Positions 15,511-59,100 of a DNA stretch of 64,000 nucleotides are shown in pieces. Under the pieces are notes generated by a model, which was not told the origin of the DNA, did not search any database, and worked only from the letters and a program-made list of their open reading frames with translations. This DNA is from Euglena gracilis (lineage: Eukaryota): assembly GCA_039621445.1 (NCBI GenBank), contig CP154954.1, positions 19,826,642 through 19,890,641 on the forward strand, in the 5' to 3' direction. The position numbers and the translations under genes were made by a program. Position 1 is the stretch's first letter. Each line of letters begins with the position of its first letter.

Positions 15511-18500
15511 GGATTGACCAAATGAAATAAGGGATCAAGGGAGATGCTTGTGGCCAATGATATAAAATTGCCTTTGGCTGACCAATGGTCTTAAAGGGGC
15601 CAAAGCAGTCAATCGGCAGTCAAATCGGAAGCATATCTGGCAGTCCCCGCAAGCCAAAGGCGGCCAAAGGCGGCCAAAGGTGGGTTAAATCGGGCCAAGT
15701 GGCCGAAAGTGGCCAAAAGCAAAAGCGACCAAAAATTGTACAAGTGGGTAAATGACCAAATGTGGATAAAAGTGGATGAAGTGTATGCAGATGCTGTATT
15801 GGATGCCGAGCTGAAGGGCATGGGTGACCAGAGGTGCTTGATAGTGACCAACGATTCCTTTTCTTGATCAAATGCTATTTATTACCCCCCCCCCCGCCTG
15901 GTTGACCAAAGCAAAGCAGATCATGCTAACCTCAGGAAACTGATCAGTGGGGGGGGGGAGGATTTTGAGGTAATTTTCAGCCAAAGATTTGTTGGCGAAA
16001 AGGCACATTCAGGCATTAGGCAGCCGAATTCGGGCGATTTTTACGTTAACCGTGTTAAGGTTTTGATTTTTAAAACTAGTCAACCGGAGTGGGTGATTGG
16101 TTTTTTCAGAGTGACTGGCTGGTTTTTGCCCCCCGGGGGGGGGGGGTCGGCAAAAAACCACTAAAGTGACCCAGCACCGAAGGCGCCGGGGGAAAAAATG
16201 GCCTTTTTTGCATGTTTTTGGTCAAGTTTCTTTTGGATTCCAGAGTGGCCGACCCCCCCCCCCCCGGGGGGATAGTGACTGACTGGTTTCCCGGAAAAAA
16301 GTGACTGACTGGTTTTTTGAAGACCCCGGGGTCGGAGTTGGGGTTATATGCCCTGAGCTTATGAGAGCCCCTCTGATGTGTTACGGTGCGTCGGGGGGGG
16401 GGGGACATTCTCTGCACAGCCAATGTGTGGGCTTGGGGAGGACAGGTGGACGGAATCCCGCTGGAGATCACGTTGCCTTGAATTGGGTAAGCATTTGGGC
16501 ATTGGCGCACGCTGATTTAGAATTTTAATCATTGTATTTCTATTGCGCCGTGGTGCAGTATAACTCTTAAATTTCCATTATACACAAACGTGCCCATTGC
16601 GCAGTGGAGCAACGGTTGCCAATTTTTAATTTCTTTTTTTTGTCATTGTGGGCGGAGAGAGCAGTCCTCTGGAAGCATCTCATTACCAGAGCGGGCAGAG
16701 CTAAGGTGGAGGGAAGCCTTTCCTGGGACAAAAAGCCAACCCTGTTGTGTGAATGCAACCGCCATTATCTTCACATCTCGACGGGTCTTGTTTTATGTGT
16801 TTGTGAGCCTGAATGCCAGTGCCACAGGTTCCTCCCACTTGCTTCGCAGTTTAGCATGCCTGAAGGGCCCTTCTTTTTGGTCAACTTTTGAAAGTATGAA
16901 AATCTCTGTTTGAAAAAGAACAGGTACCAGATGAAACCTTGGAATCACATCCGAGGAAACAGTTTTGGGCACCCAAAAGTGTTTTAAAAAACTTCGCCCC
17001 CCCCCCTTTTTCTCACCCAGGATTTGAAGCACACAATTTTGGGTGGAATTGAAAAATCGAAAGGGTCCATCAAAAACACGGAGAAAGGCAGGCTGACACA
17101 CCTTTTTTCGGTAATTTGCAACCCACCAGACAGCCACATCACCAAAAAGTGAGTCCCTGATCCTCTCCCCTCCCTCCAGGGGTGGGGCCTACCCGTGCGT
17201 GGATGGGTGACCCCCCTCCCCCCCCCCTGGTTATTAAAAAAAATCCCCAACCCAACACCCACCCGACGCAGGTCGCCTTGTGGTGCTGTCCCCTGCCAGG
17301 CCGTATTTTTGTCGGGTGCCGACCCCACCCGGGGGGGGCGGGGGGCTGCCTGGGCAGGCACTCCAAGGCACTCCCAATCCGACCCGGGGGGGGGGGGTAG
17401 GGCATACAGCCAAAAGTGCCTTAGCACAGACCCGGCGCCGGGGAGCCAAAAAATGGCCTATTATCAAAGGAATGTGCCTGGGCACAGGCCAAAATCCGAC
17501 CCCCCCCCCCGAGGGGGGTGGTGCCTGCCTGGGCAGGCACTCATAGGCACTCTGGACCCCCCGCCTCCCCCCCCCCGGTGTTGGTAAAAAAAAACAGCCT
17601 GTCCCCTGCTCTTCGTCAACAGGCCTTGATGTGTGCTTCAACATTGTCTATGATCGTTGTTTTGATGTTGGTTTCGCACATCCGTGAAGGCACAAGTGGA
17701 CCGACAGCTCTGTTGCAGGTCATCCTAACCAGGTACCTGTTAATGTTCGAGGTGCATTTATGGGAATTTTTTTTCGCCATATTCATCATCTTTTCTCATT
17801 GCACTTTTTTCCCCGTTTCCTTTCATTTATCATGTTTACAATTGGTGTTGTCATAAATATATTTTGTTATGGTTGCAATGATTGTTTTTCTCAGGAGATG
17901 AAAAAACTGTATTTTTTTTTCACAACCATGAAGAAGTTTTGTTTATTATTATCATTTTTGCAGAGCTTTTCAGCTGAACCAGGGAGATATATTATTTTTT
18001 TTTATCTCACAAGTGCTCAAATTCCTCTTTGCTCCACCCATCATTGATAAGCTTTCCCATTTTCCGTTTTCTCCCCTGGTGGCCCATCATTTGTTTTGAA
18101 GTCCACATCTCCAACACAGCCAAATTTTTTTCTGCTTCATTTTCTATTCGTACCAGACACCGAGCACAGGAATCGTCCAGAATTGACTCATTCATTTGGA
18201 CCCATTCAAAATGAATGAATGGTTCCAAATAATTCCACCCAGAACCCTCCCCCGGATATTGTCCTCCCTGGAAAATTGTCCTGTACTCGCTGACCTGTCT
18301 TTAGGGGGACCAGTCTCCCACCTCTGTCCCCGCTGATTTGTCTGGAGACAGTTTCCCGGGAGGGGGGGGGAGGGTGAGTACCAACTCCCGTATCCACCCA
18401 AGGTATTTCCGAAGCTGGAGGGGTCCCAACCCCCTTGGGGACCGAGCCAGGCACCTTTTTATCCCAGCCATCAGCTTCCGGCAAGGCTGCAGATCCCCCC

Positions 18501-19053: not shown

Positions 19054-23580
<4,527 letters not shown>

Positions 23581-38644: not shown

Positions 38645-41600
38645 ATGCCGGTATGTGTTCATTACTGGTGTCGTCTTTTTCGGTGCATCTCTCAAGCGTT
38701 GGAATTTTTTTAAAGTCTGGAAAGCTCCAAATATCAATGATTTGTGCAGCTGATATCCAGCACTCTTAAGGAGGGATCTTGCCAGGATGTTTATGTGTCC
38801 TCGTTGCTTGCACAGGGGAAGAAGAAGGGAGCGAAGATGTCCTTGGGCGATTTCCTGGGCCCCCCGCAGCCAACGGTGTGTAGAACAGCCCATCACTGAA
38901 CTTGTGGTGACTGAAGATGGTTGGATGGAATGGCACGACAGCAAGAATCTGCTCCCTCCCACCTCAACCAATGTCGAACTCGGGCAGTAGCAGTAGCTGA
39001 TCCTTTCAAGAACCCTGGGTATGGAAAAATGAGAGCACATGTGCGGGTTTTATTCCACAGGAATAGGTGGCGCCGTTGAGAACAAACATCTCTGAGAAAT
39101 TCATCTGCAAAATGGCCTTAAATGTTAATTAAGAAATTAAATGTTAATGTTGATGTCAAATGTTAATTAAAAAGGCAAAAAATGCCATACGTGCAGCCTG
39201 CCAAGTTTATTTAAAAGCAAATTGTCTTCATCAAATCATCTTTGTTACCTGAACTTGAAGCCCCATGGCTTACGATGGGTATCCTGGTTGACCGGGGGGG
39301 GGGGGGGTCAGGGCCCCCTTTTTCCAGGAAGCAGCCGGGACCGCCAAAAAGCCCAAGTTTTTCCCAGCGCTTTTCATCCCAAATTTTATCTTTTGGGGGG
39401 CAAACATTTTGCTATAAAAATAGTTCTCCAACCGCATTTTTGTCCATTTTGGATTCAACATTTTTCAGCTGGGCGTTTCAAACTAAACCAGAATGAAAAT
39501 TGGGTCATTTTGGCGATGTCACTGTTTAGCTGGTGGATGGAATATTGGAGCTCCCCACTTGACCACGCCAAACCCTGTTCGCACCACAGGAGCATTCCGT
39601 TGAGGTCGAAGAGGCTCCCCTTTCGGCAGACCCGCTGCTGAAGTACAGCTCCTACTTCACCAACGAAGGAGGTATGGGCAAACCTTTCCGTCCGATCCCA
39701 ATTGGTTGAAGGTTGGAACAAAAGGTGGGTTTCTCTGAAGACATCTACTGTTGGCCAGATGACAATGGCAATGATGATGTGTGCCGCTTGCGGTTCCACA
39801 TAGTTTTCGCATATTTTCAAGTGAACGTTCTTCCACAAATCCGCAATTGACCTCCCAGAAAAATCGACCCAAGAAGCTTTTTCAAGGGTTGGTATCTCCC
39901 CCCCGAAAATTCTTTTCTGCCAACCAGTTTGTGACAACAGCACCAGAATCAAATACCTTTTCCCACATGGCTGAAACAAGATGTGATCAAACCGTTTCTT
40001 AAGGAACCCGAGGGGGGGGGTCCACTGGCTGGCCATTTGCTAGACACTGGTGAAAATGGCCAAACTAGACCCCCCTTCCCAATCCAATCCGAGGTCCCCC
40101 CCCTGACTGAAAAAAAAAACTCCTCCAGCACGGCGCACTGAGGTGAAATGAGGACTTAATGTGTTTCTTTTTTGGCTGATTCTGTTCAAAAAAAAATTCC
40201 AAAATGGCCAAAAATGGGCATTTTGGCTATTTTGGAGGTCAGAAAATTTTCCAGCATTTCGCACTGGAAGAAAATTATCCACTAGCTAGCCCTGCTAACG
40301 GACTCCTCCCCCCGGGTTCACTGGGATCCCCACTAGCCAAATTTCTACTAGCTGCAGTCCAGCCCATCCCCCCGGGAGGGTAAACCCCCCCCCCAAATAA
40401 CACACCCCCCCGGTGTGTTATTTGGGCACCCGAACTGGGGCCCCAGGGGGGGGTGTGTTATTTGGGGGGAGTGTCATTTTTACATGGAAAACCAAAGGAA
40501 AACAGGGGGGGTGTGTTATTTGGGCGCTCGAAATCGGCCCCCGAGGGGGGGTGTGTTATTTGGGGGGGGGGGTGTGTTATTTGGGGGGGGGTGTTATTTG
40601 GGGGGGGGGTTTACTGCATACCTTTCAGCAAATGCCTGGATGTGACCCTCCCAAGGTTTGCCAAGGTCTCTGAAGATATGTCTTTGAAAAATTGCAGTGA
40701 GCAAAGTCATGTAGCTGTGTCTCTCACATGCATGTGGAACTTCAACGTATGAGAGAGCCTAACACTTCAAAAAAGAGCGAAGTGGGTGCCACGAAGGGGG
40801 TGGCAATATCCCCCCAGGGCCAAGGATGGCCTCCTCGCCCTCCAAAATCAGAACGGGGAGGCAAATGGTGCCCGGAACGTGGGTGCAGTGGAGCGGTGGT
40901 GCACTCGGTGGGCATTCACCCCTGCGGAACTCCAGTGCCTTCCCCAGTGTGCCGATTCCAAATCAGGGGCAACGTCGGCTGGGCTCTTCCGGGGAACTCA
41001 ATTGTGCAGCCAACTTACAATGACCCATCTCTTGCCTTTTGTATTCGCTGGTCTGTCTGGAGACAGTTTCCCAGGAGCGATGTGTCCAAAATTTTGCTGC
41101 AGGCGATTTCGAAATTTCCTGCACTGTCTCGGGTTTTATTTAACAAGGTGTCCGCTTTCAGCACTCCCGATGACCCGACCCCTGGTGCCCTCAACATCGT
41201 CGTGGTCGTGGGGGTGGAGGCCCGCGTTCTTTAGGGCACCCAGATGGGGGTTTTGTCGACATTCTTTTTTGTGAGTGCTGTCATTTTTAGGGTGAGGATA
41301 TTGTTTGGATAGGGATCAGGGTGAGGGTCTGCCGTCAGGAAAGAAGTGGATCGAAATCAGGTGGAAGGTTTGGCCTGATATAGAATTTATAGACACCTAA
41401 ATTTACGCACCTATTCAAGGTCCAACAGTTTTGATCTTAACCTATTCCATACCATAATCCGAACCTTACCTCTCAGAAATGACCCAAATTCTAATCCAGC
41501 AAGGAGGATGGCAAATTTGGGTTTGTGGCAGTATTTTAGGGCTGCCAGTTTTCATCAAAATCCATCGATGGGAGTGGTGAACAATTAACGGGGTTATTTT

Positions 41601-44600
41601 GTGTGATGTTAGCGTGTTTTTTGGACAAAGGTGCGGGAAGGTGACCTTTTTTTGCAAAGTTATTGTAATCGCCCATCAGGTCTCGGTGGAGATTTTGCAA
41701 ATGTCGGTTTGCAAAGGATTCCTCAAAGGATTTGCTGGAAGCATCAACAGAATTAGGTCGGCTTTGTTTGGCAGTATTCCAATCGTGTAAGGGTCCCGGC
41801 ACATCCTTCTTTTCACATTGAATGCATAAATTGGGGTGCCTCTCCATGCAGACTGCCACGGCTACTATGCCGGAGATGAGCTGTGGGACGAGGCTTTCTC
41901 TTCAACCCATCAGAGGCACACACACACACACACACAGACACACATACACACACACACACACCAATGTTTCATGATTCTGGGCCATGGCCCCCAGAGACCC
42001 CATCTTTTTGGCCGTGGGGTGTTCGCCTGCCGACCACTGGGCCGGGTTCGACCTGAGGGTGTGCCTCCCTTGGCCCCCGAAGCTTCCGGTCCACCCCCTG
42101 TCGCCCACTGGTCTGGGCCATCACGGCATTCACGTCAAACCCGGGCGAGGCCACCCACCCACCCCACTGGGCCAAGGCCTCCGGGGGACAAGCTGGTGCA
42201 GGACCAGGACTGGACCCGGGTGACGGCGATGTACAACCACATCGCGCTCATCTTCGAGCGGGACCGGGAGCGGAGCACGAGCGTGGGCCGCTGGGGTGTG
42301 CCCCATGTGCGGCGGAGCGGCGCGAATTTGTTTTTGCCCGGGCAGCGTCGGAGGTGCAACACAGGGGGTCCAACTGAGGGCACAAGACAAACATTAACTC
42401 AACCGAGTTCTTGTGACCCAGATTTTCAGCAATAAACTCCAAGAATAATTGTGTGGGATTTGAAATTTCGGCAATGTTCATAGCCGAAATGGAATTTGCC
42501 TTGGGATCCTACCACACTTCACCAATCGTCTCAACAAGAATTTCGGAGTTAAAAAGTGCATTGCCCATGGATTTGGCAGCCATGTTGGTTTTGGTTTAAA
42601 TCTGGTGCTTTTGGTGCTTCCATCTGATCGGCTGCCGCAGGAACCCACCCGACGTTCATGCAGCTGCTGTTGAAGCTCTGGGAGAGGTATGTTGCTGGTT
42701 TCTCACTTGTCCTTCCAGTCGGCAATTTATGGGTCGATGCCCACCCATTTTTTTTGCCTTTACTGGCCGTGTGGGTCGTTGCAGTGCCGTTGATTCTGCT
42801 CGCTTTTCGACCTTGCGACGTTATTTGCCCCTGGAATTCTGTTCGATTCTGTGCCCTCTGGGATGGCAGAATTGGCTGATTTGGCGACGCTTATGATCAC
42901 CCCAAAGCTCCCTTCCAGACCCGAGTTATCCAGCCAGCCAGCAAGGCTCTAAATTGGATGAACTTGCCAATCCCCCCAACTTTCAACACTGCCATTTCGC
43001 CAAGGCGAGTTCTTGGTTCCAAAATATGCCGAAGTGAGTGTTTGGGTTGAAAAAAAATATGTTGCAAAAGTATCTCGAAAACTTACCCCCAAATGGAGGT
43101 GTTTCGTAAAGCAGGGATCCAATGGCTCGCAATTTTTCTCCCGCAAATGGGGTTGTGCTCAAGGTGATAATCCGCGGTTATCATTCCCTATCTGACCCAG
43201 GGGGGTCGAGCGCCAGGAGGGCGTCCTCCTTTTTCCGGGTGGTGAGGTTTCTCTTACCATAAAGAGATGAGAAAAGCGCAGCAAAGACCCCCTAAAAGTG
43301 TCTTAATCTCCCCAAACATCCAAAGGGAAATGTGTTGCCATTGTTTTCGCATTTTTGTGCTTTTTTTGTGCATTTTTCGAACTTTCCAAAAAATGTTCAT
43401 TTCTGCGCATTTATCGCATTTTTTTGCACTTTTTTTTGATTTCTTTCAGCGCATTTTTTTTTTGCCATTTTGGCACATTTTTTTGTGATTTACCCAGTAT
43501 TTCGCATTTTTGACCATTTTATAATTTTTTTCGATATTTTTTGAAACTGATATTTTCTTTATAATTCCATATAATTCCCGTAAATTTGTTGCCATTTTTT
43601 GCATGTTTTGGGGTAATTTTGCATTTTTTTTCCCCTCCAGATTTTGCAGATTTTGCATATTTTTGCGCTTTTTTGCACACTTTGCGCATTTTTTTTTTGC
43701 GGGGCTGGGCTAGCGCATCCACCTCCCCCCCCCCTGAACCAGGGGTTTTTTCCAGTCGTGGACCCCCAGGGGGGGGTAGGGTGGGTGGGTCCGGCCGAGC
43801 CCCCCCCCCCGGGGGGGGTCCCCCGGAGGGTTGTGGGATATACTTTTCGGCGCCAAAGGCGCCGAAAAAGTGCTATTTTAGCACTTTTCGCGATTTTCGG
43901 CCATTTTTTGTGGGTACCCCGGGGGGGCCCCCCTCCCCCCCCCCCGGTCTTAAAAAAACCCCTGCCCTGAACGTCCTGATTTTTTGAATTTTCGGGAAAA
44001 TTTGCCATTTTTATGTGTTCAACGATGTATCCTAATTTTTGAGACATATTCTTTTCACAGTGCACGATCCTGGTTTTGCGGCTTATTTTGGACCCTCCCA
44101 CCAGAAAAAATTTTGGGCCAAAATTTTCAGCGAAAATCCCAAAAGGGTGACCCTCCTTGTGATTTTCAGCAACTGACCCAAAAGGTCTAATTTCGGGGTG
44201 GGGTTTACAGGAGATCCCACAGGTTTCTTTTTTTCCCTTCTGAAGATGGACGTTTCGTTGTTGATATTGTTATTGCACAAAAGAAGGGTGCAAAGAAGAA
44301 CATATTAAATGCAATGTTGTGAACCCGCGATGCTTGTTTTTTTGCTTTCTTTTCTCCCGCGCAGACTACGTTGGATGCTGGACCAAGGGGTCCTCACCCC
44401 CGAGTGCAAGCAAGCCAGTCGTCGGCTGTTCGACGCGGTGTGCTCCACAACCCAGACCGAAAGGAACGCCCCGAGCGTGCGAGGCACTTTTGTGTTTATC
44501 CAGAGGAAGAAAGGGTCGAAGCCAGTGCAGCGCCTCCGCCAGACGGGACCCCAGCCAGTCCAGCCAGCTAGTTGCGTTTTTCAAGCCCTGGACGCCCTCC

Positions 44601-47589
44601 CTTTCCCACAGACATATTTCACCAGGCACCATCCAGCCGCCCTAAGAACGGCTGGATGGTAACAGGTTTTCCGCTTTGGAGGGTACCTAATTGGACCAAC
44701 TTTGGGTGAAAAAGGGGTAAATTTGAATGCCCAGCTCAAATTCCTGAGCTAAAAATCAATTTCTGGCATAATTTGCCGGTTTTGGGACTTCGTTTGATTT
44801 TCCCTTGCCCAGTCCGACCCGGGTTCAGCCCAGGTTTAACTAGGGGGACCCACCCCGGAGGGAGGGGTCAGCCACCGCCTGTTTCCAATCAGCCCGAACG
44901 TTCTGGCTTCTGACCTCCCCCCGGGGTTGTCAAGCGACGCCCTAGTCGAAACGTCTTCTTTACATGGTCGGAAGAATGAAAATTGATTGTAGGAAGGATT
45001 TATGAAAGCATTTTTTTTTGTGAGTTGATGATGGAGATTTGCGCAGGATATTGCTGACGGCAGAAAAGCAACACCCAAAGCGATACCGTCCTTGAAGGTG
45101 CAAAAGCACCGGAACCGGTGAAAAAAGTCCTTTGGGAATTTGGTTCGAAACCGCAGTTCCAGTCCCAACATGCTAATCCAGGTTTTCTTGGTGGTCGTTG
45201 TCTTATTTTTGGGTGGTCTCTTTCCGAGGGATATTGGATCAGGGGTTTTTTTCTTAGTCGTAGACCCCCCTGGGGGAGGGGGGGGGTAGGGTGGTCTGAC
45301 CGAGCGTCCCCCCCAGGGGGACGAAGGCGCCGAAAATTTTTGAAAAAGGTGCTATTTTTGGCGTTCTCGCAATTTTTGGCCATTTTCGGGGAAATTGAGT
45401 GGGTCCCCTGGGACCCCCCCCTGGGGGCCCCCAGGGGGTTGGTGGGTGGGAGGACCCCCCCTCCCCCCGGTCTTGAAAAAAACCGTGGATTGGATTCAAG
45501 CATTGTGGATTCAAGAATTGTGGGCCTGCGTTACTTATTATTATTTTGAGCCGATGGAGTACCTCTCAACCCCCCCTCCCCAGGTCAACCTGGAGCTGAC
45601 GTTCAAGCAGACCAGCAAGATCCCTAAGTGGGGCAGCCTGGCACAGCACGGAGATTGCAGCCGGTTTTAAGGAAGTCCGCACCTTGAGAGGGTGAGTGCT
45701 TTGGGGGGCAGTGGGCACCCCCGGGGGTCGGGTTTTGGGATGAGTGGGGGACACACCTTTCGGTGCCAAAGGCACTGGGGGCCCAAAAAATGGCCATTTT
45801 CAAGAAAAATTGTGCTTCACAGGCAGGCACCGGGACCCAAAACCGACCCCCCTTTCAGGGGTGTGCTTGCTGCGGGCATGCACCCATGTGGGGTGGGTAA
45901 CAAGAATCCTGAATGGGGAGATGTCAGGGCATACCAAAAAAAAAAGACGAAACAGGCAAAAATGCCCCGAAGTCATCAAAGGATGTGTCAACCTTATTCA
46001 GTTGCAAGCAGAATATGGATTAAGACCGGCTGGCATAGTGGACAAAATTTTTGAAGAAAAATATTGCTTGCCGTTTTTTTTTTTTGCTGCTTTCAACAGC
46101 TTTTGGCCCTTTTTTGCTGCTTTTGACCTCTTTTGGGCACTTTTTGCTGCTTTCATTTTCAAAAATAGGGGAAATGGGGTAAAAGATGGCCAGAAATGGT
46201 CCAAAGGTGGCCAAAAGTTGCTAAAATTGCCGAAAGTGGGCAAAAGTCAATTGAAAAATGATAAAAATGGCCAAAAGCAATCAAAAAATAATGTGGCCTT
46301 TCTCTGCCATTTGGTGGCATTTTTTGGCCATTTTTGGCCAAAAATGTCCAAAACTGGCCTTAAAGTGGGCATACGTGGGCAAAAATGGTGAGAATTGGCA
46401 AAAGCAGCTAAAAGCAAAAGCAGCAAAAGCAGCTAAAAAGGCAGACGAAAGAAGCAAAAAAGTTGGCAAAATTGGCCAAAAAGTTTGGCGAAAGTGGCCT
46501 ACAATGGGCAAAGGTGGACAAAAAAAAACGGCCCAAAAAAAGGTGGCCAAAAGTGGCCTCAAAGTGGCCAAAGAGCAGCAGAAGCACTCCAGTGGGCAAA
46601 GGTGTCCAAATTGGGCAAAAGTGGGCAAAGTTGCCCAAAAGTAACCAAAAGTGAACAAAACGCAACTAAAGCAGCCAAAAGTGGACAGAAACAGCTTATA
46701 GCAGCCAGAAGTGGGCAAAAAGTGGCGAAATAATTTCGCTTAAAGTTGGGGTGACTGGGATTTCTATTGCTGTGACTGGGCGTTGGTTGCTTAAGCACTG
46801 GCCGACCCCCCAGGGGGGTGACTGACTGGTTTTTTCAGAGTGACTGACTGGTTTTGCCCCCCCCCCCCGGGGTGTCAGCCAGGGGTGGGCAAAAGTGGCT
46901 TCAGTGACCCCGGCGCCAAAGGCGCCGGGGAATTTTTTTTGGCCTAAAATGGCCTAAAGTGACTGGAGTGGCCGGTTTTCCTGAGAGGCCGACTCCCCCC
47001 GGGGGGGAGCAGTGATTAACGGTTTCCCAAAAAAAAGTGATTGACTGGGTTTTCGAAGAGTGGAGTGACCCCCCCGGGTCGGTAAAAAATTGTATGCTGG
47101 GCGTGACTGGGCGTGATCGGGCGTGACTGGGTCTAGGACTCTAGATGACCACAGGTGCTTGTTTCACTCCCCCCCCCAAACGCAGACTCCGAAACTCCGT
47201 GCTGCGGCGGACTTGATGGCGGCGTCCACCGCCTAGCTGCGGAGCACCGGACTGTGGGATCGTCTTGCTGGCCCCCCCGGCCACTGACCAGCCCGTTGCT
47301 CTCTGCCCCCACGCCGGACAACCTCCGACACGGCCCCTCGACCCGCCCAGCCATTCCCAGCCTCGACCACTGCTTTGTCCTCGCCCATTGTGTTCCGCGG
47401 AGTCCCACCCACAGGCGCCTGGCATTGTCTGTCACCGACCGCGTCAACCCCTGCCTCCCGCCGGCTGCTCACTGTCCCAAGGTGCAGCAAGTATGGCCGT
47501 GGAACGTCTTTCTCGCCGTTATGAACCTGCAACTCAACCCCCTGCACCCGGACCCAACCACCTGGCGTTGGTTTGTGCACTATTTTTGA
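38645..47589 (+). CDS. Hypothetical multi-exon protein
   Basis: GC-rich, GT/AG-bounded in-frame blocks: 38645-38650 MP; 38816-38875 GKKKGAKMSLGDFLGPPQPT; 39590-39671 EHSVEVEEAPLSADPLLKYSSYFTNEG; ~40875-40950; ~41148-41219; ~42190-42282 KLVQDQDWTRVTAMYNHIALIFERDRE; ~42641-42686; ~44365-44437; ~45584-45630; last exon ~47482-47589 VQQVWPWNVFLAVMNLQLNPLHPDPTTWRWFVHYF*. Internal frames are not all resolved and no family was recognised. Confidence 0.55.
40381..40614. mobile_element. MITE-like TIR element with GTGTTATTTGGG repeats (related copy 9743-9852)
   Basis: Termini taaacccccccccaaataacac / gtgttatttgggggggggttta (homopolymer lengths approximate). Confidence 0.75.
43740..43964. mobile_element. 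hAT-like MITE (intronic copy)
   Basis: TIR caggggtttttt / aaaaaacccctg with a perfect 8-bp TSD, ccctgaac. Confidence 0.88.
45240..45487. mobile_element. hAT-like MITE (intronic copy, same subfamily as 43740)
   Basis: Termini caggggtttttt / aaaaaaccgtg. TSD tattggat / gattggat (7/8). Internal sequence resembles 43740-43964. Confidence 0.82.
46080..46735. repeat. Low-complexity TTTTGGCC/GGCCAAAA array (also ~5650-5990, ~8060-8620, ~15650-15780)
   Basis: Degenerate ~10-bp units recur at several loci. Confidence 0.8.
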
Positions 47590-50500
47590 TCGAACTCGAG
47601 TGGTCCCAAAGGAACCTCGCAGCGACCAACTTCGGCAAAGTCTTCTTACCTTGGAAATATTGGAGATTGGCTGAGTGCTCTAAAATTGTGGTTTTACTGT
47701 CTCAGAGATTTAGAACTTCGTATTCCGATTCCAGGTTGAAGGCAATTAAGAATCAATTAACGTGTCAAGGCAGGGGGGGATTTATATCCTCAATTCTCCC
47801 ACAATTTCCGCAATTTTCTGCAAATTTTTGGTATTTTACCCCCCTTTCTGCATTTTTTACGCCAAATTTTAAATTGGAGCAGGGGGAAAATATGCAAGTC
47901 GCATACTTTGCATATTTTTTTCATATCCAAAATCTCGAAAATTTGCATAATTTGCATTTTTTTTTTTGCATTATGGAAAATTTGTGAAAAGTCACATTTT
48001 TGCAGTTTTTTTCATATTTTGCCTTTCCGATTTTTGGGGGCATTTGCACAGGCAAATTTCTCCCACTTTTAGACAACTGGAAGTTGCATACCTCACGTTT
48101 TGGACCAATTGCACATTACGAGTAGTTGTATGGTGAAATATAACTAGGTGAACCAGCCACTTCACTTTTGCATTTTTTTGCGCTACGTATTCTGAGGAGC
48201 CTTGTTGCATATTCCCCAGCAAATTTCAGGGAAAAAAACACAAAAAAAATCGCCAAAATTGGCGGCTTTGCCAAAATTTTGCCAATGTTGGGAGAAAACA
48301 CAAACAGATGCGAAAAAGTACTTGTTTTCCTCCTTGCCTGCTGAACCATTTGTGGAATGGCCAGAACTCATTGCACCTTTATAATAAATAATATAATAAT
48401 TTCGATTTTATTATATTCGAAATTATTTCTAAGTCGCATTCAGACTTGATTCTTCCTGAGGTTTTTTGTCCAATTTTTGTCATTTTTTTTAACAAAATCC
48501 CCAAAGTTACATTAAGGACAAAGTTGCATGTTTTTGGACTATTTTGCTTTTGGAAAGAAATGTGAATGACAGCACAAAACACACACCGCTGCAAAATAAT
48601 CAAGCAGGCGAAATTTTTCCAAGTACTTCCAGCTGAAATGTGTACGTTCCCAATAAATTTCTCCGCAATTTTTTTCCCTAGGGCGTCCAATATCACCCCC
48701 TCCCCCAGTCAAGACTTTGGTAGGGTACCATGTCAGCTGATGAAGATTCCTTCGGAAAAAGGAAAATTTTGGCAAAACAGGAATAGGTGCCCCTGGAAAA
48801 ACGGGAATAGACAGTGGGGGTGCCGACCCCCCCCCCCCACCGAGAACACAGCAAACCATGGGTTTCCCGGGGATCCCATTCAGCCTTGTTCGGCCGATCA
48901 CCACTAATCTCCCCCCCCCCAAACTCTACGGATTGGTTTGTGCAACCTAGACAAGCCCCACAGTGAACATTCACCGCCGATCCTGATTTCGTCCTCAGGT
49001 GTTGTATCATTATCAGGTGTGTTCTCCCCCCAAGGCTTTCTGGCCCAGAAACGAAAGTCAACGTTGGGAAGGACATGGGGGGGGGGGGCTCTTCCCGTGC
49101 CGACGTCTTTCCGATCAGGGTTTGCGGTGGCGGCGACCCGCGATGCTGGCGGAGCGATGCCCGAGACCGCCGCTGCGCTGAGCCGACCGCGCCATGCTTG
49201 CCGCGACCCCCGCATTGCGTCCCCCTCTCTGCCCAGGGGTCGGCGTGTGCCCGTTCCTGCGAACATTTGAGTGGTGTTATTTCGGGGCCTCGTGCTACAA
49301 GTAATAGATAACCAATAGATATGTCAAAATCTTCCTCCCAAAATCAACCAAACTCAGTCCAAAGAGCGTCCGATTTGTGATGATCGCCAACGTTACAAGA
49401 AAAACAGGACTGCGGGAAATTGTGTATTGCTTTTTTGTGAAGCTTTGACCGCGAAGATTTGGGCCATAAGCACCTCCTCCCCACTTGTGAAATACCCAGT
49501 CCCGAATGCCCACGACCCAGCCAACAGCCACACTCGGCTAATAGTATCTCAGCTGCTGCGGTGCGGGGCTGCCATTTGTCGTATATCCGTGACATTTGGG
49601 TGGTCCAATTGTCGTGGCCGATTCCTGGCCCCCTCCCGGAACACACCTTTCGCCGGCCCTTCCCCAGCGTCGCTCCCCCGGCGCCTCCCGCCACCGCTGC
49701 CCACCGTCTTTGGTGTGCCTGCCGCCGGCTTGAAAGGAGTGTACTCTGTTTCCGCGGGTGCTCTTCCGCTGTGTGAAGGCCCGCAGCATGGGGATGGCCT
49801 GTTTTCCCGTCCCCAAATGTGCCACGGTGTGCTGTTTGCAGACGCCATTTCTGCTCAGGAGGCGATGTCGTCACCCGCAGCCCTCTTTTGCCCTTTGCTG
49901 CGCTTGAAGTTGCCGCTTTCTTGCTCGCCGCCAGCTTCTTGACGTTCGCAAGACGGCTCTTTCCCCGGCGTCGGGTATGGGCGTCCAACACAAACCATCA
50001 TCCAATCGGTGCATATACTGCCTCGCAAAACGAAGACTGGAAGACTGGATCCAACCCCCCCCCCCAGAGATCGCAGGCTGGGTGTTGGCACATCCATCTC
50101 TCAATTGGATCAACAGCGTGGCTTCAGCGTCCTTTGCTGGGAGCAAGGCTTGTCGAGTTTTGCATTAATGCATCCTGTCTTCCTGTGCCCATTCAACACC
50201 GGAAACACGTTTTGTAAACCTGATCACAACCAAACATCCCAGACTTCCAGATATCATTTACCGGACATCATTTGTCTCTTCAGATGCTGTCTTTGATCAC
50301 TCAACCCGTTGAAGGATTCCCCAACACTGACATGCGATTTGCAGTCTTTCAGGTCCCTTTTGTTGCCAATATCTGGCAAGCTTAACCAGCCAATGTCGGA
50401 GGAAACCGTTCAGGGGTGGTTAGTTCCAGGTTCATTTTTATCGCAATCACCAATGCTGAAGACTCCAAAGCAGAGCAGACGCTCATGGACCAATGCGTTG

Positions 50501-51678
50501 CACATTCAAACCACTATCCCAAACCATTACCTGTGCTTTAATATGCCACACTCATCTGAAAGGCCTGTGGCTGGGATTCGGGCCACTGCGGTTGCACAGA
50601 CAGTTTGCATGGTTCTCCGGCAGCAATGTGTGACGCATTCTATATGCACTGTTTCTGTCTTGTTCGGGTCTCCTAACCTTCTTCGCTTCATTCTTTGAGA
50701 TATTTCTCCACAAAAAATATCCTTCAAAAATCAATTCCAACGGCAGAAGGTGCCAAAGGAAATTTTGGCACCACTGGAAAAATGAGAAAAGCTGACAAAG
50801 GGGGACCAAACCAACGCTTCCCGCATGCCCTTTTGGCCCTGGTTATTTAGGGCTTTTTCGAAGATTTTCGAGTATTTTTTTTAAAAAAAATACGGCTGCT
50901 TCGCTTCCCCTTCCCCTTTCCAAGGATGAAGGCTTTTAAGGCATTTTTTTAAATAGATTTTTTGAAGACTTTTTAAGGTTTTAAAACTTGAAGGGTTTTC
51001 AGCTGTTTTTTTTTGTTCTTTTTTTTTGAAACGTGCAATGATTGTGCTTGCGTGTTTTTTTTAAAAGAAAAATGTAAACCCAGTTCAAGACATCCACAGT
51101 GTTCGTGAAATGTTGTTGCATAATGGAGATTTTTTTTTCGCAGACATGAATTTTTTTGATCTTTATCAACGTAAATGTGTACAGTCCGACATGGTGAAAA
51201 AATATATCGTCATGCTTTTCTTAAAGGCAATTTAAGTCATTTCATTTTTCAAGGCTTTGGAGCCTTGAAGAGGTGTAGGGCCTAAATTTCTCCCTCGACA
51301 GTCTGCGTACTTCTTTTCCAGGATGGCCGCACCCCCGGGGGTGTTGTAAGCAGGTGGAGGGGGGGGGGGGCGTTTTCATCAACCCCCAGAGGCCTCCCCA
51401 AAACCCTGCGGCAGGGTTGGATATAAGGACTGAAGGAGGGTGTGTGGAATTTAGGCGGCCCCACCCCTCCCCCCTCCTCCACCTCTTGAAACCTTGGGGT
51501 AGAATGCCCCGCCAAAAAAAGATCAAATTTTCTTTTCCGGCGCTTTGTGCCAAAAACATTTGGGAATTTCGACATTTTTTTTACCCCCCTGTCCCGCTTG
51601 GCCCGGGGGGCGGGGGGTTCGACCCCCTCACCTGCCATATCGAACCCTGAGCTGCAGACAGAAGCCAGCCATCTCCGA

Positions 51679-53080
51679 ATGGCGGTGCTGTGCCTGAGGG
51701 GCGGGAAGTCTTGCTGGCGCACGAAACTGAGTGGTCCGGTGGTCCAGTGGTCCTCTCGGCTCGGGTTGACCCAGGCCAATTTCCCTTTTAAGACAGACTC
51801 CAATTTTTGGACACCCGGCGCTGGGCGGTGTGCTATCCCCCCACCAGTCAATCATTTAGTCACTGGCCGACCCCCCCCCCCGGGGGGGGGGGTGACTGGT
51901 TTTTCCAGAGTGACTGACTGGTTTTTGGCCCGGACCCCCCCCCCCCCCCGGGGGGGGGGGGGGGCAAAAAACCGCCAAAATGACCCGGCGCCGAAGGCAC
52001 TGGAAATTTTTATTTGTCCTTTTTTTTACATGTTTTGGGTCAAAATTCCCTTTGGATTGCAGAGTGGCCGACCCCCCAGGGGGGGGGGGTTGACTGACTG
52101 GTTTCACAAAAAAAAGTGACTGACTGGTTTTTCAAAAGTGGAGTGACCCCCCTCCCCCCTGGGGGTCGATAAAAAAGGTATGCCCCCCACCCATCCCCGC
52201 CCTTCAGGTCTCAACATCGACTGCAGCGCCTGAGGGGTTTCTGTCAGATCCCCACCGTGAGGTTGGAGGGCATCCGTGGCTGCGCCAAACAGGAGGGGCC
52301 GAAGCGCTGAGGCGACCTGAGGGCAGTCCGTTGTCTCGGCCGGATGAGTTTGGATTGCGAAAGGTATTGACTCCACTGAGCTGCTTTTTTTTTTGTGAGC
52401 GTGCTGCATACCTCGGTTTTCTTTCGGTTCAATGGTGTATTGTTTAATTGTGCTGGAGTTCAGAGTGTGACGCATTGCCAGGAGTGGACCAAGTGCTTCG
52501 TGCCGGACGCCCCCGAAGTTGCTTTGGCGGACGTTTCGGAACATCTTCAAAAGCACGTGTATGATGTCCTGGTGGACGTGCGCGATGCGCGGCTACCAGG
52601 CTTCTGCTTAAGGGATTGCAGTACCCCCCCCCCCGGGGGCTGGACTGCAGCTAGTCCAAATTTGGCTAGTGGGATTTCTAGCAGACCCCCCCCCCGGGGT
52701 CTGCTGGCAGGGCTAGCTAGTGGAAATTTTTTTCCAGTGACCGGCGTGAAGCGCCGGAAATTTTTGGGGGGACCCCCAAAAATGGCCAAAAAAGCCCGTT
52801 TTTGGCCATTTTTGGGAATTTTTGGACCAAAATCAGCCAAAAACCTATTAAAACCCTCATTTCCACCTCGGCGCACAGCGCCTGAGGAAAATTTTTTCCA
52901 GTTGGGGGGACCCCCGGACCCCCCCTCCCCCGGCGGGAGGGGGGGTCTAGCTAGTCCATTTTTCCAGTGTCTAGCCGATTGGCTGGCCAGTACCCCCCCC
53001 CGGGGGTCTTTAAGCAAAAGCCTGGCGGCTACCACAATCATCCCTCCATCCACAATACCAGGGATTGGCCAAAGTTGTGC

Positions 53081-53116
<36 letters not shown>

Positions 53117-56100
53117 GGTGCCAACCCTGGAATGAAAGTCTGATGGATCCAATAGCAAGATAAGCCCGACAAATGTCTTTGAAATGTTTTTTTTAAATAT
53201 TTTCCTGTCAGAAAGGTTGAACATAAGGGCGCATGTGTTATGAAGGCAAGCCGAACGTATCTAACTGCTGGTCAGACTTTGTGGGGGGTGGGTTAGTATC
53301 CCGTTTTCGCTCAATTCCCAGCCCAGGGTTTCCGACTCGGCTGCTGATCTCTGTTGCATGCTACGGTGGTGTTCATTGGCCCGTGCCAACCCCCCTCCCT
53401 CCCCCTGCCATCGCCGGCCTCCCTCCCAGGCCCACATCGTGTGCTACACCCACGCGGAACGGCTCAGCCGGGAGGACGTCGACCGGGTCGCGGCGTGGAC
53501 AGAGCACACCCACGGCCCCTCCGCCCAGCAGCCGTCTCTTCTTTCCACCACGGTGCCCGTTGGCCCCTCGCGGGCTGAGGGCTGGGCCGCCGACTGCTGA
53601 ATGCGCCGCCGTCTTCTTCCTGAATCTGCGGCGTGTGCGGCGGATGGACCGGAAGCAGCCCTGGCGACTCCTTTCCCCACCCACATGGTGGACTCGGGCG
53701 AGGGGTTGGTGAGAGGTAGGGTGTTGTTTGTGTAGAATGGGGACATTCTTAATTGCAGGCCAGGGTTTAGGGCAGGGTAAAGGGGAGGTACGGGATCAGG
53801 GTTTGCGACAGCGTTGGGGTTGGGTGGGACACCAGGCCCCCACCTACTACCGGACCAAGTATGGACATGGATGCGCGCCCAACAGCAAGGATGTGCCACG
53901 CCGTCCAGCCGGCGGGCCACGCGTCGCACGTGCCCACGCTCCGCACCGTTTCAACCGATACATCCGGGACCTAACTCCGGTGTCCAGCCCCGACAAGGTC
54001 CGGCATCACCGCCAACAACAGTCACCGGCCTGCGGGCGCATGGGTGTCGAACGGGGGTCATCCCGGACCGCCGGAAACGAGGGAACGCCGTGCCCGGACC
54101 CCGAGGGGCCCCCAGCCCCCGGCCAGCGCCGCCCTCCGGCCCCTGCGGCGGGCGGTGGCCGCCGCGTGCCGGGCCGGCGGGGGCGCCGAGGCGCTGGTGG
54201 CGGGCCTCCCCAACGCCGGCAAGAGCAGCCTGTTGCACCCGCTGGCCCGCCGGTTCCTGCAGGCGGCGTGGAAGCGGAGGTCCGAGGACCACATGCCCCA
54301 GGTCCAATCCGGAACTCGTGATGGGGGACCCCCTGGGTGGGGGGACCCCCGATCTCAAGAAAATCCCTGACATATGTGTATTGCATTGTAGATCACCTCC
54401 TCACCCCCCGTGGGAGGTGGCCCAGCCAGTCATAAGCCATTTTCCACCTTCCCCCATCGAGGGATTTTAATTTCTTTCCGGTTGCATTTCGGGCGGCTGG
54501 ATAGTGGCGGAGTTTTTGCCGTGGTGGGTTCCAACGTGGCAACATGCCAAACTTCATAAAAGTGTGTCGAAAATTGCCCAAGCTGTTTCAATTTTGGGTC
54601 TGAAAATTCATATCTTAAAATTTTGATTTTTGGGGGGGCTTGTCTGTTGTCTTAATTTTTTTGGCACCCGGTAAGACCCCTGGGGCGGTCAGCCTAGATC
54701 CAGCCAGCCCAAATTTTCTAGCCTCTGATCTTCCTTCCCCCCTGCCTGTTTCATTTCTTTTCTCCTCAGAGCTTGCACCCAAATCAAAGTTGTCCTATTT
54801 GGTGCTGCCTTGCAAAAAGAATATAAATGCAATATGGTTGACATGGGCATGTTTCACTGAAGATGCCTTTACTCAGTATTTCAGACCGATTGACTGGTCG
54901 GTCAGAAATGCCGACCAGTTTTTCTTGGCTCAATAACCCAGGCGAGGGATTTGGCCAAAATTGTGAAGTGGCTCCGCTCCTGCGCACCAAAATTAAATGC
55001 GGACATTTCTCTTCGCCTCTTCGACCAATTTTCCCAACGTGGCTGCCAAGCACCTCCAATGGTGCATCCCGACAAATCCGACAAATTGTGACAGATCGCG
55101 ACAACACGTATTTGGCCTCCTTGAGATGGGGGTTCCATCAAATCCCGACAAAGCCCAACCAATCCCGACAACAGCGCCAAAATTTGTGACCACTGATGAA
55201 GTTGCCAAGTCAGGATTTGGTTGGTTTTCTGTTTTGCACAGTTTTTTCTTTGTGAAACCACATAAAGAATTTGCATGAAAAAAAGCTTCGACACACTTCA
55301 GATATGGCCAGGACCCAGCTCCAACGTGCAGAGCACAACAAACCCCGAAAAATCCCGACAAATTCTGCGGCCAGCACCCAATTATCAGACGGTATGGAGG
55401 TGCATGGTGGCTGCCTAACCCGGTGGGAGGTGGTGGCCAGGTTGCCTCTGAGGGAAAAGCTGCCTCTGAGGGAGTCTTTGCTGACTGGTGGGTGGGCGAA
55501 TGAAAGGAACACCCCCAAGGGTCGGCCAACCATCAATGATCCCGAACGCATTAACTTCAGGTGGTTTTTGGCCAAACATCGTCCCTTCTGCCGGCGTTGA
55601 GCCTGGGATGGGTCAGGGGCCCCGCCGCCCCCGTCACAGGTCGCCTGCAAGCCCGGCACGACCACCTCCGTCCTGCCCTACCCCATGCCCAGTCCCTGTT
55701 TTGCTGTTCCCCCACTCCCAGAGAGCGAAATGGGGGGAAGGGAATTTGTGGTACCGCCCATCCGAAACCACGCTGTGTTCAGAATCAACAAGGGGGTACA
55801 TGGGCTTTGGGAGCCCACTTGTTGTTGTTGTTCTTGTTGTTGTTGTTGCAATTGCACAAGTGGTCCAAAATTAATATATATTTTTGAGGCTTTATTAGTG
55901 GTGATTTTTGAGACAAAAGGAGAATAAGAAAAACAGCGCCCACAAAGTGGAGGTGTTTGTACAGCATTCCTGAGCACATATGTACATGTGCATATACAGC
56001 ATATGCAGCATGTCTGAGAGGGTCAAAGAAAGTGTGTCAGGGTATTGCACCATGAATTGAAGGGTATTGCGCCATAAATTCAACGTGTACACACATTCAC

Positions 56101-59100
56101 GTAATCTGCAAACCCGTCGTCTGTGTGGTCAGTTTGTGAAATCGCACAAGTAATTCACCACTTCGGACCACTTGCACGACTGTGGGAACGTCTGTTCCCG
56201 TAATTACACAAGTGGAATATTCCCGCAGTTGCCCAAGTGGTTGGTTTGCACATTTTGCAACTGCTTTGTGTGTGCAGTTGCGCACGGAGACCGACAGGGA
56301 CAATTTTTTTAAAAAAAATCAAAGTGCAAGCTCGCCAAGCAGCACACATGGTGCACGTTTGAAAGTTGTGTGTGTCGAAAGACCGGGAAAAAAAGCCCGC
56401 GTTCCATGTTCCATGGCTTATGCAGTGCATCCAACCAAGTCAGGCGGCCCATCTTGCACTTGAAACGGCATTGGTTTTGCGGAATTGTGCAAACGGACCG
56501 TTTGTGTTTTTTGAAAGTCCCAACAAATTGCACCTAAACCTGTTAATTTGATCAGGATGTGGTCTGGTGCCCGGACGGTAGAAGGTGGTTCAAAGATTTT
56601 GACCAATACGGTATTCATGAGGCAGGTGTCCCAAACAGCACACCCAGTCTGTGTGCTTGGGAAACTCCCAACGGCTGCCTCATCAACTTGGGGTGGCGTG
56701 GGGCAGACGGCATCGAGCCCTCCCCAACAACGTACACTTAGACGCCGGGGAACAACGTTCGCATGGGCAGTCGGGGCCGAATCGCTCGGGGGCCGGGCGG
56801 CCCCTCTCCGTCTTCCCGGGGGGTGAATGCCGGCCCGCACTGCCGGGCCTGCCCCCCAGCGTGCCGGCCGCAGTGGCTCTGGGGCATCGACACCCCCGGG
56901 CTGGACCCCCCGGCGGCGGCGTTCCACGCGGACCCGGAGCTGGGCTCAGGGGCTTTCTTAAGCTGGGGGGGTCCTACCCCCCCCCCGGGGGGGGTCCAGC
57001 CAGCCAGCACGTTTTATCCAGCCAACAACTCCCCCCCCCCGTGTTCGCCGAAATGAAGTTGGGGCTGGGACAAAAAACCGCCAAAATTTCTTTCGAAAAA
57101 AGTTGGGGGAAGGGGCCAAAAAAGGTATTTTTTGAGCGGATTTGGGGCTTTCACCCGATGTTTTTTTTTGAAAAGTCCCAACCCAGCTGAAATTGCACTT
57201 TTCTTTTTGCCGTTTTTCGGGTTTCAGACAGGTCCAGCTGCCTGCCCCCCCCCCAGACCCCCCCCAGAGGGATTCCAACCATCACCTTTTTTCTCCGGCT
57301 GCACCTTTTTCCAGCCGGCCCATGCCCCCCCCCCCCGGGGGGGTCCATAAGAAAGCCCCTGGCTTGGCTTCAAGCTGTTCCTCACGGGCCACCTGCGCCG
57401 GGGCAGGGCCCCGTGTGCGGTGGACGTTGCCGACTACGTGCTGTGGAAGTGCAATTGGGTGCGTCCCCTGTGGCCTGGCCCTCGGTGGGGGCTGGAATGT
57501 CGCGGCAGGTTTTATCCGTTGGAGGCTGGCAGGCGCCGGAGGAGGAGGAAGAGATCTGTGTGGTGCGCTCCGGTGCAAAAGCTATGACGTCCAATATGTT
57601 CATGTGGGACGAGTAACCCACGTGTGCACGCAAACCAATCACCCCCCACCAATTGAAATTGCGCTTCAATTTTGGATTTTGGTATTCGTTTGGGTTTGCA
57701 TCATTTTGGGGACTGTGTTTAATGGATGGCCACCTTTGGAAATTGCCATTTTGTTGTTTTCACTGCAAAATTGCTGGAAAGAGCAACAATAAAAACCCAT
57801 GGGTGTTGTGCTTTGCCCCATTGGGATTTGTCTTTTTTTAATTTAACGGCTGTCAATCCATGCAAAGTTTGGAAAGGGTCACCGTGTCTTCCAGGGTTCA
57901 CCCATCCGACCAATACAACTACCAGCGATGAGAACCCCAAGCTCCAATGTCTTTTCCGGGCTTCTGCTTAAGGAAGTGGGGGGGTTGCTATGGGCAGGCA
58001 GGGAGGGGGGGGAGGCAGGGGGTTGAAAGTGGGTTGGCAGTGCTATGGCACACCCCCCGGTGCTGAAAGACGCCAGGAGTCCGAAAACGACCATTTTCAA
58101 AAGACATGGGTCGGAGGGAATTTTCAAGGCTTGGTTGGCAGGCACCGATGTCCGAACGCCCCCTCCCCGAGGGGGGTGCTCGCAATGAGCAGGCACCCCA
58201 TAGCACCCAACCCCCAGGGGGGTTGGCAAACAGAAGCCTGGTCTTTTGTTATCTTATAACTCAGCCATTCTCCCTAAGTCAGCTTAATTGTTCCTTCGAC
58301 ATTTGTAAGCTGAAGACGATCCCAAGGGTTAATCGAGCTACGATTGCTTTCTCGTTTGCTTGCTCTACTCAGCTTCGCCACCATTTCTATGTTCCAATTT
58401 TAAAACTCCGTTCATCCCAGTGCTTGTTGACTCCCACGGTGGATCACTTCGGGTTTTCCCTCCTCCAATCTCCGTCCACCACCCATTCACTCAGCCATCT
58501 GCACGCACAGGGAGAGGCAAGAACGTGCACACACATACAGAAACCCACATGCACACACATATACACACAGACACATACATACACACATAATTGCATACAC
58601 ACAACAACACATATGCAGACGCGTGCATCCACACAGACATGCATACACAATCACACACATATGCAGACACATGCACACACGCATACATATATACACACAT
58701 ACCGACACACACATACATGCATTCACACATCCACACATACAGGCACATGCATACACATATACACACAGGCACGCACATATGCATAAACACACATACAGAC
58801 ACAAACATCCACACAGGTGCGCACAGACACAAGGCTTTTCCTCTTGGCATTTTTCTTTTTTGTTGCATCCATGCATCCAATGCATTTCGGAAGCGGGGGG
58901 TTGCTGCCAGGGGCCGACGGATGACATCCAGCTGATCCTGCGGCAGTTTATGGGAGAGGCCGACCACGGTGTGGCCTGGCACCCCATGCAGCCACTGCTC
59001 CAATTTCCCTCCCTCCCAAGGTTGTGGAAAACATTTTTTCCAGTTGTATACAACTTTCATGGAACACAACCAGTGTGCATCACATACTGCACATGTCACA

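Follow-up and report, generated by a model that had tools for sequence, protein, structure and literature searches.

A coding exon in the gene for an RbgA/YlqF-like GTPase is interrupted by a 428-bp element in the 64-kb window (the whole stretch of DNA that was analyzed, to which all positions refer), and the element is removed from the RNA as part of an intron with nonconventional borders. We observed the anatomy of the element, the exact removal of 436 nt from RNA, the regained homology of the host protein, and further copies with 8-bp duplications of their own. The best explanation, to which we give a probability of roughly 85%, is that a transposon was inserted into the exon and is removed as a nonconventional intron.

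The element lies on the forward strand at 52597-53024. It is MITE-like and non-coding, with terminal inverted repeats enclosing an interior that is a very abundant genomic repeat. The left terminal inverted repeat, CAGGCTTCTGCTTA, occupies 52597-52610 on the forward strand and begins with the CAG of the nonconventional splicing code, and the right one, CAGGCTTTTGCTTA on the other strand, occupies 53011-53024 and ends in CTG on the forward strand. These 14-nt repeats were identical at 13 of 14 positions; in the repeat search, the inverted pair was returned with 16-nt arms that were 94% complementary. The element had been predicted to carry a perfect 8-nt target-site duplication of its own, and this was borne out by direct reading and by the repeat search, both of which placed GCGGCTAC on the forward strand at 52589-52596, within coding sequence, and again at 53025-53032 without a mismatch. 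As computed, the direct repeat measured 10 nt (52589-52598 and 53025-53034) rather than 8, because the two bases past the right copy happen to equal the first two bases of the element.

The summed depth of the contigs of the DNA run was about 3 × 10^5 over the element versus about 40 in the unique flanks, a depth that is inflated by runs of C and G and is not a copy number. In addition, 23 DNA contigs aligned from 52596 onward with unrelated upstream sequence, indicating many insertion contexts. A stop-free frame of 251 codons (52380-53132) extends from the upstream intron through the entire element and is in the wrong frame downstream of it; this frame is probably a product of chance in GC-rich DNA.

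Removal from RNA was analyzed with the reads and contigs aligned to 47200-58400, which came from one raw RNA-seq run, two contig sets, and one DNA run. The RNA origin of the two contig sets is a guess, for which contigs joined across multiple introns argue. A joint that leaves out 436 nt (52588>53025) was found in eight raw RNA-seq reads with seven start points and in one contig of each of the two presumed RNA sets. The 436 nt removed equal the element (428 nt) plus one copy of the duplication (8 nt), which is the intron that the original prediction had proposed. The joint was present in none of the contigs of the DNA run, and this absence of the joined form is weak evidence because the DNA contigs break at the repeat. 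Owing to the direct repeat, the joint is slidable by 10 positions, giving 11 equivalent placements with an intron start anywhere from 52589 to 52599. GT/GC-AG or AT-AC borders were found in 0 of the 11 placements; therefore, the intron is nonconventional by definition and is not a spliceosomal introner.

The upstream coding exon (52482-52588, forward strand), which was delimited from contig pieces with loose ends and from translation, ends in VDVRD. The downstream coding exon (53025-53082, forward strand), based on transcript alignment and translation, begins RLPQSSLHP and is followed by a GT-AG intron beginning with (GT)n. This conventional intron starts as a (GT)17 microsatellite (53083-53117), the first repeat unit of which is the GT donor. 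Removal of the 436 nt joined the two exons in frame to give VRDARLPQSSLHP. In the predicted RNA fold of the intron, the inverted-repeat stem closed the structure; the minimum free energy was −255.3 kcal/mol (z = −9.75), and none of 100 shuffled sequences was as good. No back-joint, which would mark a circular product of this locus, was found among the joints listed (15 of 255).

The intron interrupts the DARxP block of the host protein. To compare this protein with its bacterial relatives, bona fide bacterial YlqF/RbgA proteins were used, one gene of which scored 276.8 bits against NCBIfam TIGR03596 (cut-off, 208.2 bits). YlqF matches above the cut-off were present in 35 of 41 bacterial genomes, and 30 loci were used to build a custom profile. 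The query protein consisted of the joined RNA-supported exons plus one guessed 54-nt exon (53669-53722) in a poorly conserved stretch; for this exon, which lies between 53522 and 54120, splice-motif rules gave 64 candidates, and the choice by eye and by depth bin is a guess. The spliced protein matched the 30-sequence YlqF profile with 37.9 bits (E = 5.9e-14 at Z = 1; profile positions 22-194 of 282), and the three RNA-supported exons around the intron alone reached 17.1 bits against the same profile. In comparison, the unspliced reading scored 3.1 bits, and the reading from which only the 428-bp element had been removed scored 1.0 bits. These results indicate that the removal of 436 nt is what restores the YlqF homology.

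In a blastp comparison with one bona fide YlqF, the spliced protein gave 37.4 bits (E = 1e-7) and was collinear over 23-198 versus 44-200, and its DARLP region aligned without gaps to the bacterial DARAP block. The expectation that removal would yield the RbgA signature thus held, for a protein that is RbgA/YlqF-like. The order DARxP, G4 region, G1, G2, and G3 was kept, and GxPNxGKS, PGTT, and DTPG were all present, which corresponds to a circularly permuted layout. At the G4 position (53427-53521), the host GTPase has THAE, in place of the NKAD of bacterial YlqF, and so departs from NKxD; the protein may have an altered nucleotide specificity or may be a pseudo-GTPase. Judged from its sequence, the host gene encodes a circularly permuted GTPase that is RbgA/YlqF-like yet divergent; with the custom profile, its score stays far under the 208-bit NCBIfam cut-off.

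Searches with single exons were also performed. The G1 exon alone, a single short exon, matched YlqF (E = 0.0029) and MnmE (E = 0.0018) in NCBIfam, and the other five exons, taken one at a time, had no NCBIfam match. Pfam MMR_HSR1 matched the open frame 53975-54370, which holds the G1 exon, with an E value of 0.0087. In the PDB searches, the exon ending in DARLP gave no GTPase match, and the G1 exon gave RbgA/MTG1 at E values of 0.07-0.37, ranked behind TrmE. A word-based search of longer proteins with the G1 exon returned none at E ≤ 0.01 among 6252 candidates.

The THAE sequence at G4 and the weak YlqF match of 37.9 bits could also be those of a decaying gene copy, with the joined transcripts being noise or originating from an element-free paralogue. 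However, joined reads and contigs were matched to the flanking exons at a threshold of 95-100%, and there are contigs from which at least eight further introns of the locus have been removed. Furthermore, the frame is open over the RNA-supported exons, and the DNA run contains no joined form. We consider a dead gene copy improbable and regard the locus as a transcribed gene whose intron probably derives from a transposon.

The cut positions were considered in light of the published splicing code. In the study of Nomura et al. 2025 (PMC12501133), knock-in experiments set the code of these introns as N3-CDG...CH'G-N5-6|R with paired ends. The purine as the first downstream exon base is described there as a preference; an A-to-T variant was spliceable in one of two tested introns, and synthetic introns with arbitrary paired sequence past the CAG were spliced (PMC12501133). 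In the same paper, introns with flanking repeats are set aside as "slidable," and a MITE origin appears in the discussion only (PMC12501133).

Placed by the N3-CAG...CTG-N5 form of this code (PMC12501133), the 436-nt intron would occupy 52594-53029 on the forward strand. With its start at 52594, the intron reads TAC-CAG...CTG-GCGGC, so that the N3 and N5 spacing is present. In contrast to the preferred code (PMC12501133), the first downstream exon base under the N5 placement is T rather than a purine; the N6 placement gives A as the exon base, but the 5′ spacer is then 2 nt. The T after N5 pointed out in the original prediction is indeed there, but it is not exceptional, because the intron at 49231-49632 of the same gene, which is non-slidable and RNA-verified, is followed by C. 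The idea that this locus would be a useful test of the rule failed, as neither the mRNA nor the intron circle reveals where the cut lies. Sequencing of the circular intron had been suggested as a means of fixing the ends, and it would not do so, since the circle junction should be identical for every cut within the repeat.

We propose that this exon of the RbgA/YlqF-like GTPase gene received, within the DARxP block, an insertion of a short non-autonomous DNA transposon. Its ends are CAG...CTG, its inverted repeats measure about 14-17 nt, and its insertion creates an 8-bp target-site duplication. In the pre-mRNA, the inverted ends would pair and thereby draw the exon borders together, and the euglenid nonconventional system would cut 3 nt 5′ of the CAG and 5 nt 3′ of the CTG, presumably releasing a circular product. 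According to the code, the cuts would fall between 52593 and 52594 and between 53029 and 53030, each within a copy of the duplication. Because 3 + 5 = 8, the ligated mRNA would retain exactly one copy of the duplication, which is the pre-insertion sequence. Moreover, either orientation of the element should be spliceable because its ends are reverse-complement symmetric.

Four copies with common ends were found in the 64-kb window, and their 8-bp duplications matched at 8/8, 8/8, 7/8, and 7/8 positions. In addition to the element at 52597, a 102-bp copy lies at 21751-21852 on the forward strand, with the ends CAGGCTTGTGCTTA and CAGGCTTGCGCTTA and the repeat GGCCCAAG at 21743-21750 and 21853-21860 (8/8). 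A 284-bp copy at 57957-58240 on the forward strand (duplication, 7/8) is located inside the conventional GT-AG intron 57458-58371. A decayed copy of 651 bp at 39988-40638 on the reverse strand (duplication, 7/8), in which the 3′ CTG is mutated to TTG, shared 71% identity with the 52597 element across 397 nt. When the ends of the four copies were aligned, the flanks were unrelated, and similarity began at the CAG and continued into a run of C and then a run of G. The end types among the elements were CAGGCTT.TGCTTA and CAGGGGCTTTCTTA. With up to two mismatches allowed, the 14-nt end pattern occurred nine times in the window versus a mean of 1.31 in shuffled sequences, and 0 of 100 shuffles reached nine. 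This result confirms the earlier observation that the 52597 element has the ends of the 21751 element.

The 21751 copy breaks a frame matching Pfam Methyltransf_24 (positions 52-93 of 105, E = 8.6e-4), and the match ends at the element. The methyltransferase-like frame continues once 110 nt are taken out. A separate test for stop-free frames over excised elements did not discriminate in this GC-rich DNA. The different 8-bp duplications at the two loci (GCGGCTAC versus GGCCCAAG) fit the proposal of separate insertions into two unrelated genes.

A blind scan of the window for CAG...CTG pairs whose end bases matched at 10 or more of 12 positions gave 156 pairs. Perfect flanking repeats were present in four of these pairs at length 8; at each length from 4 to 7 and from 9 to 12 there were none. 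In 6 of the 156 pairs, the 8-bp flanks agreed at 7 or more of the 8 positions, versus 0-1 when the comparison was displaced. Control trinucleotides also yielded "duplications" (34 of 2288 pairs for GGG...CCC and 24 of 298 for CAT...ATG), and the control was therefore not clean; we assume that these stem from G/C runs and a CA-rich microsatellite region. Further CAG...CTG elements with different ends were located at 10114-10285 (172 bp), 17297-17601 (305 bp), and 43740-43964 (225 bp), with flanking repeats of 7/8, 8/8, and 8/8, respectively. The pair 13210/13888 was rejected as a copy, with two mismatches per end and a duplication of just 2/8.

These copies bear on the question of whether the intron could have arisen otherwise than by transposition. 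In the report on gapC intron 4 of Euglena agilis ACOI 323 (PMC4770533), that intron is likewise nonconventional, recently gained, and flanked by an 8-nt direct repeat, for which break repair was proposed. Staggered double-strand-break repair with capture of filler DNA might be extended to the present intron, and no transposase was found in the window, where 10 of the 18 open frames of at least 230 aa were scanned. However, the gapC case concerns a single intron, whereas here several copies have the same ends, the homology halts at these ends, and each copy has a different 8-bp repeat, which indicates transposition. Perfect flanking repeats at length 8 only and the 23 DNA contigs that enter the left end of the element from unrelated flanks also argue against break repair, which we regard as an improbable source of the intron.

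Spread at the RNA level, in which an excised circular intron would reverse-splice into a different transcript and then enter the genome through reverse transcription and recombination, appears still less probable. Circular products of nonconventional introns have been reported (review PMC11282704), but reverse splicing would bring along the old 3-nt and 5-nt spacers, whereas the spacers match the flanks of each copy (GCGGCTAC, GGCCCAAG, and GTCTTTT-); moreover, one copy sits within a conventional intron. Convergence under the splicing code, with flanking repeats due to chance and no common mobile ancestor, is the least credible account, for although the code requires CAG/CTG and paired ends, arbitrary paired sequence suffices in synthetic introns so that a common 14-mer is not needed (PMC12501133), the end pattern occurs nine times versus the 1.31 expected, four perfect 8-mers were found among 156 pairs versus about 0.002 expected (4^-8), and a second copy shares the interior at 71% identity over 397 nt.

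A transposon was probably inserted elsewhere in the host gene as well. Transcript joints defined introns of the conventional GT-AG kind (among them 50348-52202 and 57458-58371, forward strand) and further nonconventional introns at 49231-49632, 55687-56857, and 56943-57365 on the forward strand. The N3-CAG...CTG-N5 spacing fits every readable nonconventional intron of the gene. A related element of 415 bp (56947-57361, forward strand), with the ends CAGGGGCTTTCT matching at 12/12 positions and the flanking repeat GCTGGGCT/GCTTGGCT matching at 7/8, is removed as the intron 56943-57365. The corresponding joint, 56942>57366, skips 423 nt and was found in one contig of each of the two presumed RNA sets, in no raw RNA-seq read, and in no DNA contig. 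This intron is a second transposon-derived nonconventional intron of the host gene, about 4 kb downstream of the first. Among the four nonconventional introns listed for the gene, two lack a recognizable duplication (3/8 and 4/8), and a transposon origin is therefore not established for all such introns.

Other features of the gene were noted along the way. The hexamer GCCCAG opens, or may open, three nonconventional introns (49231-49236, 55687-55692, and 53523-53528); this common start may be due to chance, to a preferred target, or to a signature of a subfamily. The intron whose last base is 54120 closes with CAG plus 5 nt, followed by G (54113-54121 of the window); it would have the reversed CTG...CAG configuration, which was spliceable in the 2025 study (PMC12501133). 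The segment 51688-52061, within the conventional intron 50348-52202, had the top summed DNA depth, about 3.7 × 10^5 versus about 40 in unique sequence. It has many runs of C and G, as do the element interiors, and probably represents a further repeat of very high abundance.

With regard to the transposon class, the family of the 52597 element has inverted ends, a fixed 8-bp duplication, and many copies with unrelated flanks, as expected of MITEs. No Pfam family was detected in the 10 open frames scanned of the 18 of at least 230 aa in the 64-kb window. As no transposase-like domain was found in these frames, the element appears to be non-autonomous and is putatively mobile. From the 8-bp duplication and the CAG ends alone, it looks hAT-like. 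The element resembles hAT-type MITEs in its 8-bp duplication, its short inverted CAG ends, its small size, and its lack of coding capacity. It differs from them in that no transposase was seen and in that the hAT end consensus, YARNG, is complete in the CAGGGG subfamily only. Duplications of this length are not unique to hAT elements, as other superfamilies produce them too.

Where euglenid nonconventional introns come from has been debated as an open question since the 1990s; in E. agilis, such introns account for about 70% of the total. The hypothesis that they derive from MITEs has been in print since 2013, with indirect arguments behind it. Published work describes these introns as having paired ends and often direct repeats at their flanks, and it raises the possibility that they arose from MITEs (PMC3935182, PMC4770533, PMC11282704, PMC12621601). 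The 52597 intron is like those in the literature (PMC12501133; Milanowski et al. 2014, PMC3935182; Milanowski et al. 2016, PMC4770533) in its non-GT-AG borders, its N3-CAG and CTG-N5 arrangement, its paired ends, its slidable joint, and its removal from RNA. Unlike typical euglenid nonconventional introns, it is visibly a copy of a repeated element, with the 14-nt ends of its family and an intact 8-bp duplication, and its origin is therefore directly readable.

The intron was also compared with introners, the spliceosomal introns that in Micromonas, dinoflagellates, and other organisms derive from transposons (review PMC11282704). Both involve a short non-autonomous transposon with inverted ends and a target-site duplication that is inserted into an exon and removed from RNA, and in both the duplication supplies part of the splice sites. 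In contrast to those of introners, the borders of the 52597 intron are non-spliceosomal, and the cuts would be set by the distance from the paired CAG/CTG, both within the duplication. The 52597 locus is thus a clear and unusually clean new example of a known phenomenon. Our literature search, with supplements and subscription journals outside its scope, found no paper that names the repeated end family or ties the 3 + 5 spacers to the length of the duplication, and such a statement may be in print.

The present locus offers a putatively young copy, with intact ends and duplication, sister copies, and RNA-proven removal from a conserved motif, which makes the MITE hypothesis directly testable. 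That the 3-nt and 5-nt spacers add up to the length of the duplication would be a simple reason for the spacers set by experiment. We tentatively suggest, at somewhat less than even odds, that a single DNA-transposon superfamily left its footprint as the splicing code, with CAG...CTG as its termini and the 3 + 5 spacers as its 8-bp duplication. Splicing would then erase insertions in either orientation, and most nonconventional introns would be decayed descendants of such elements. This suggestion predicts that the sliding distances of young nonconventional introns cluster at 8 and decay with intron age. If it is true, nonconventional splicing would be an RNA-level "precise excision" system against one transposon superfamily.
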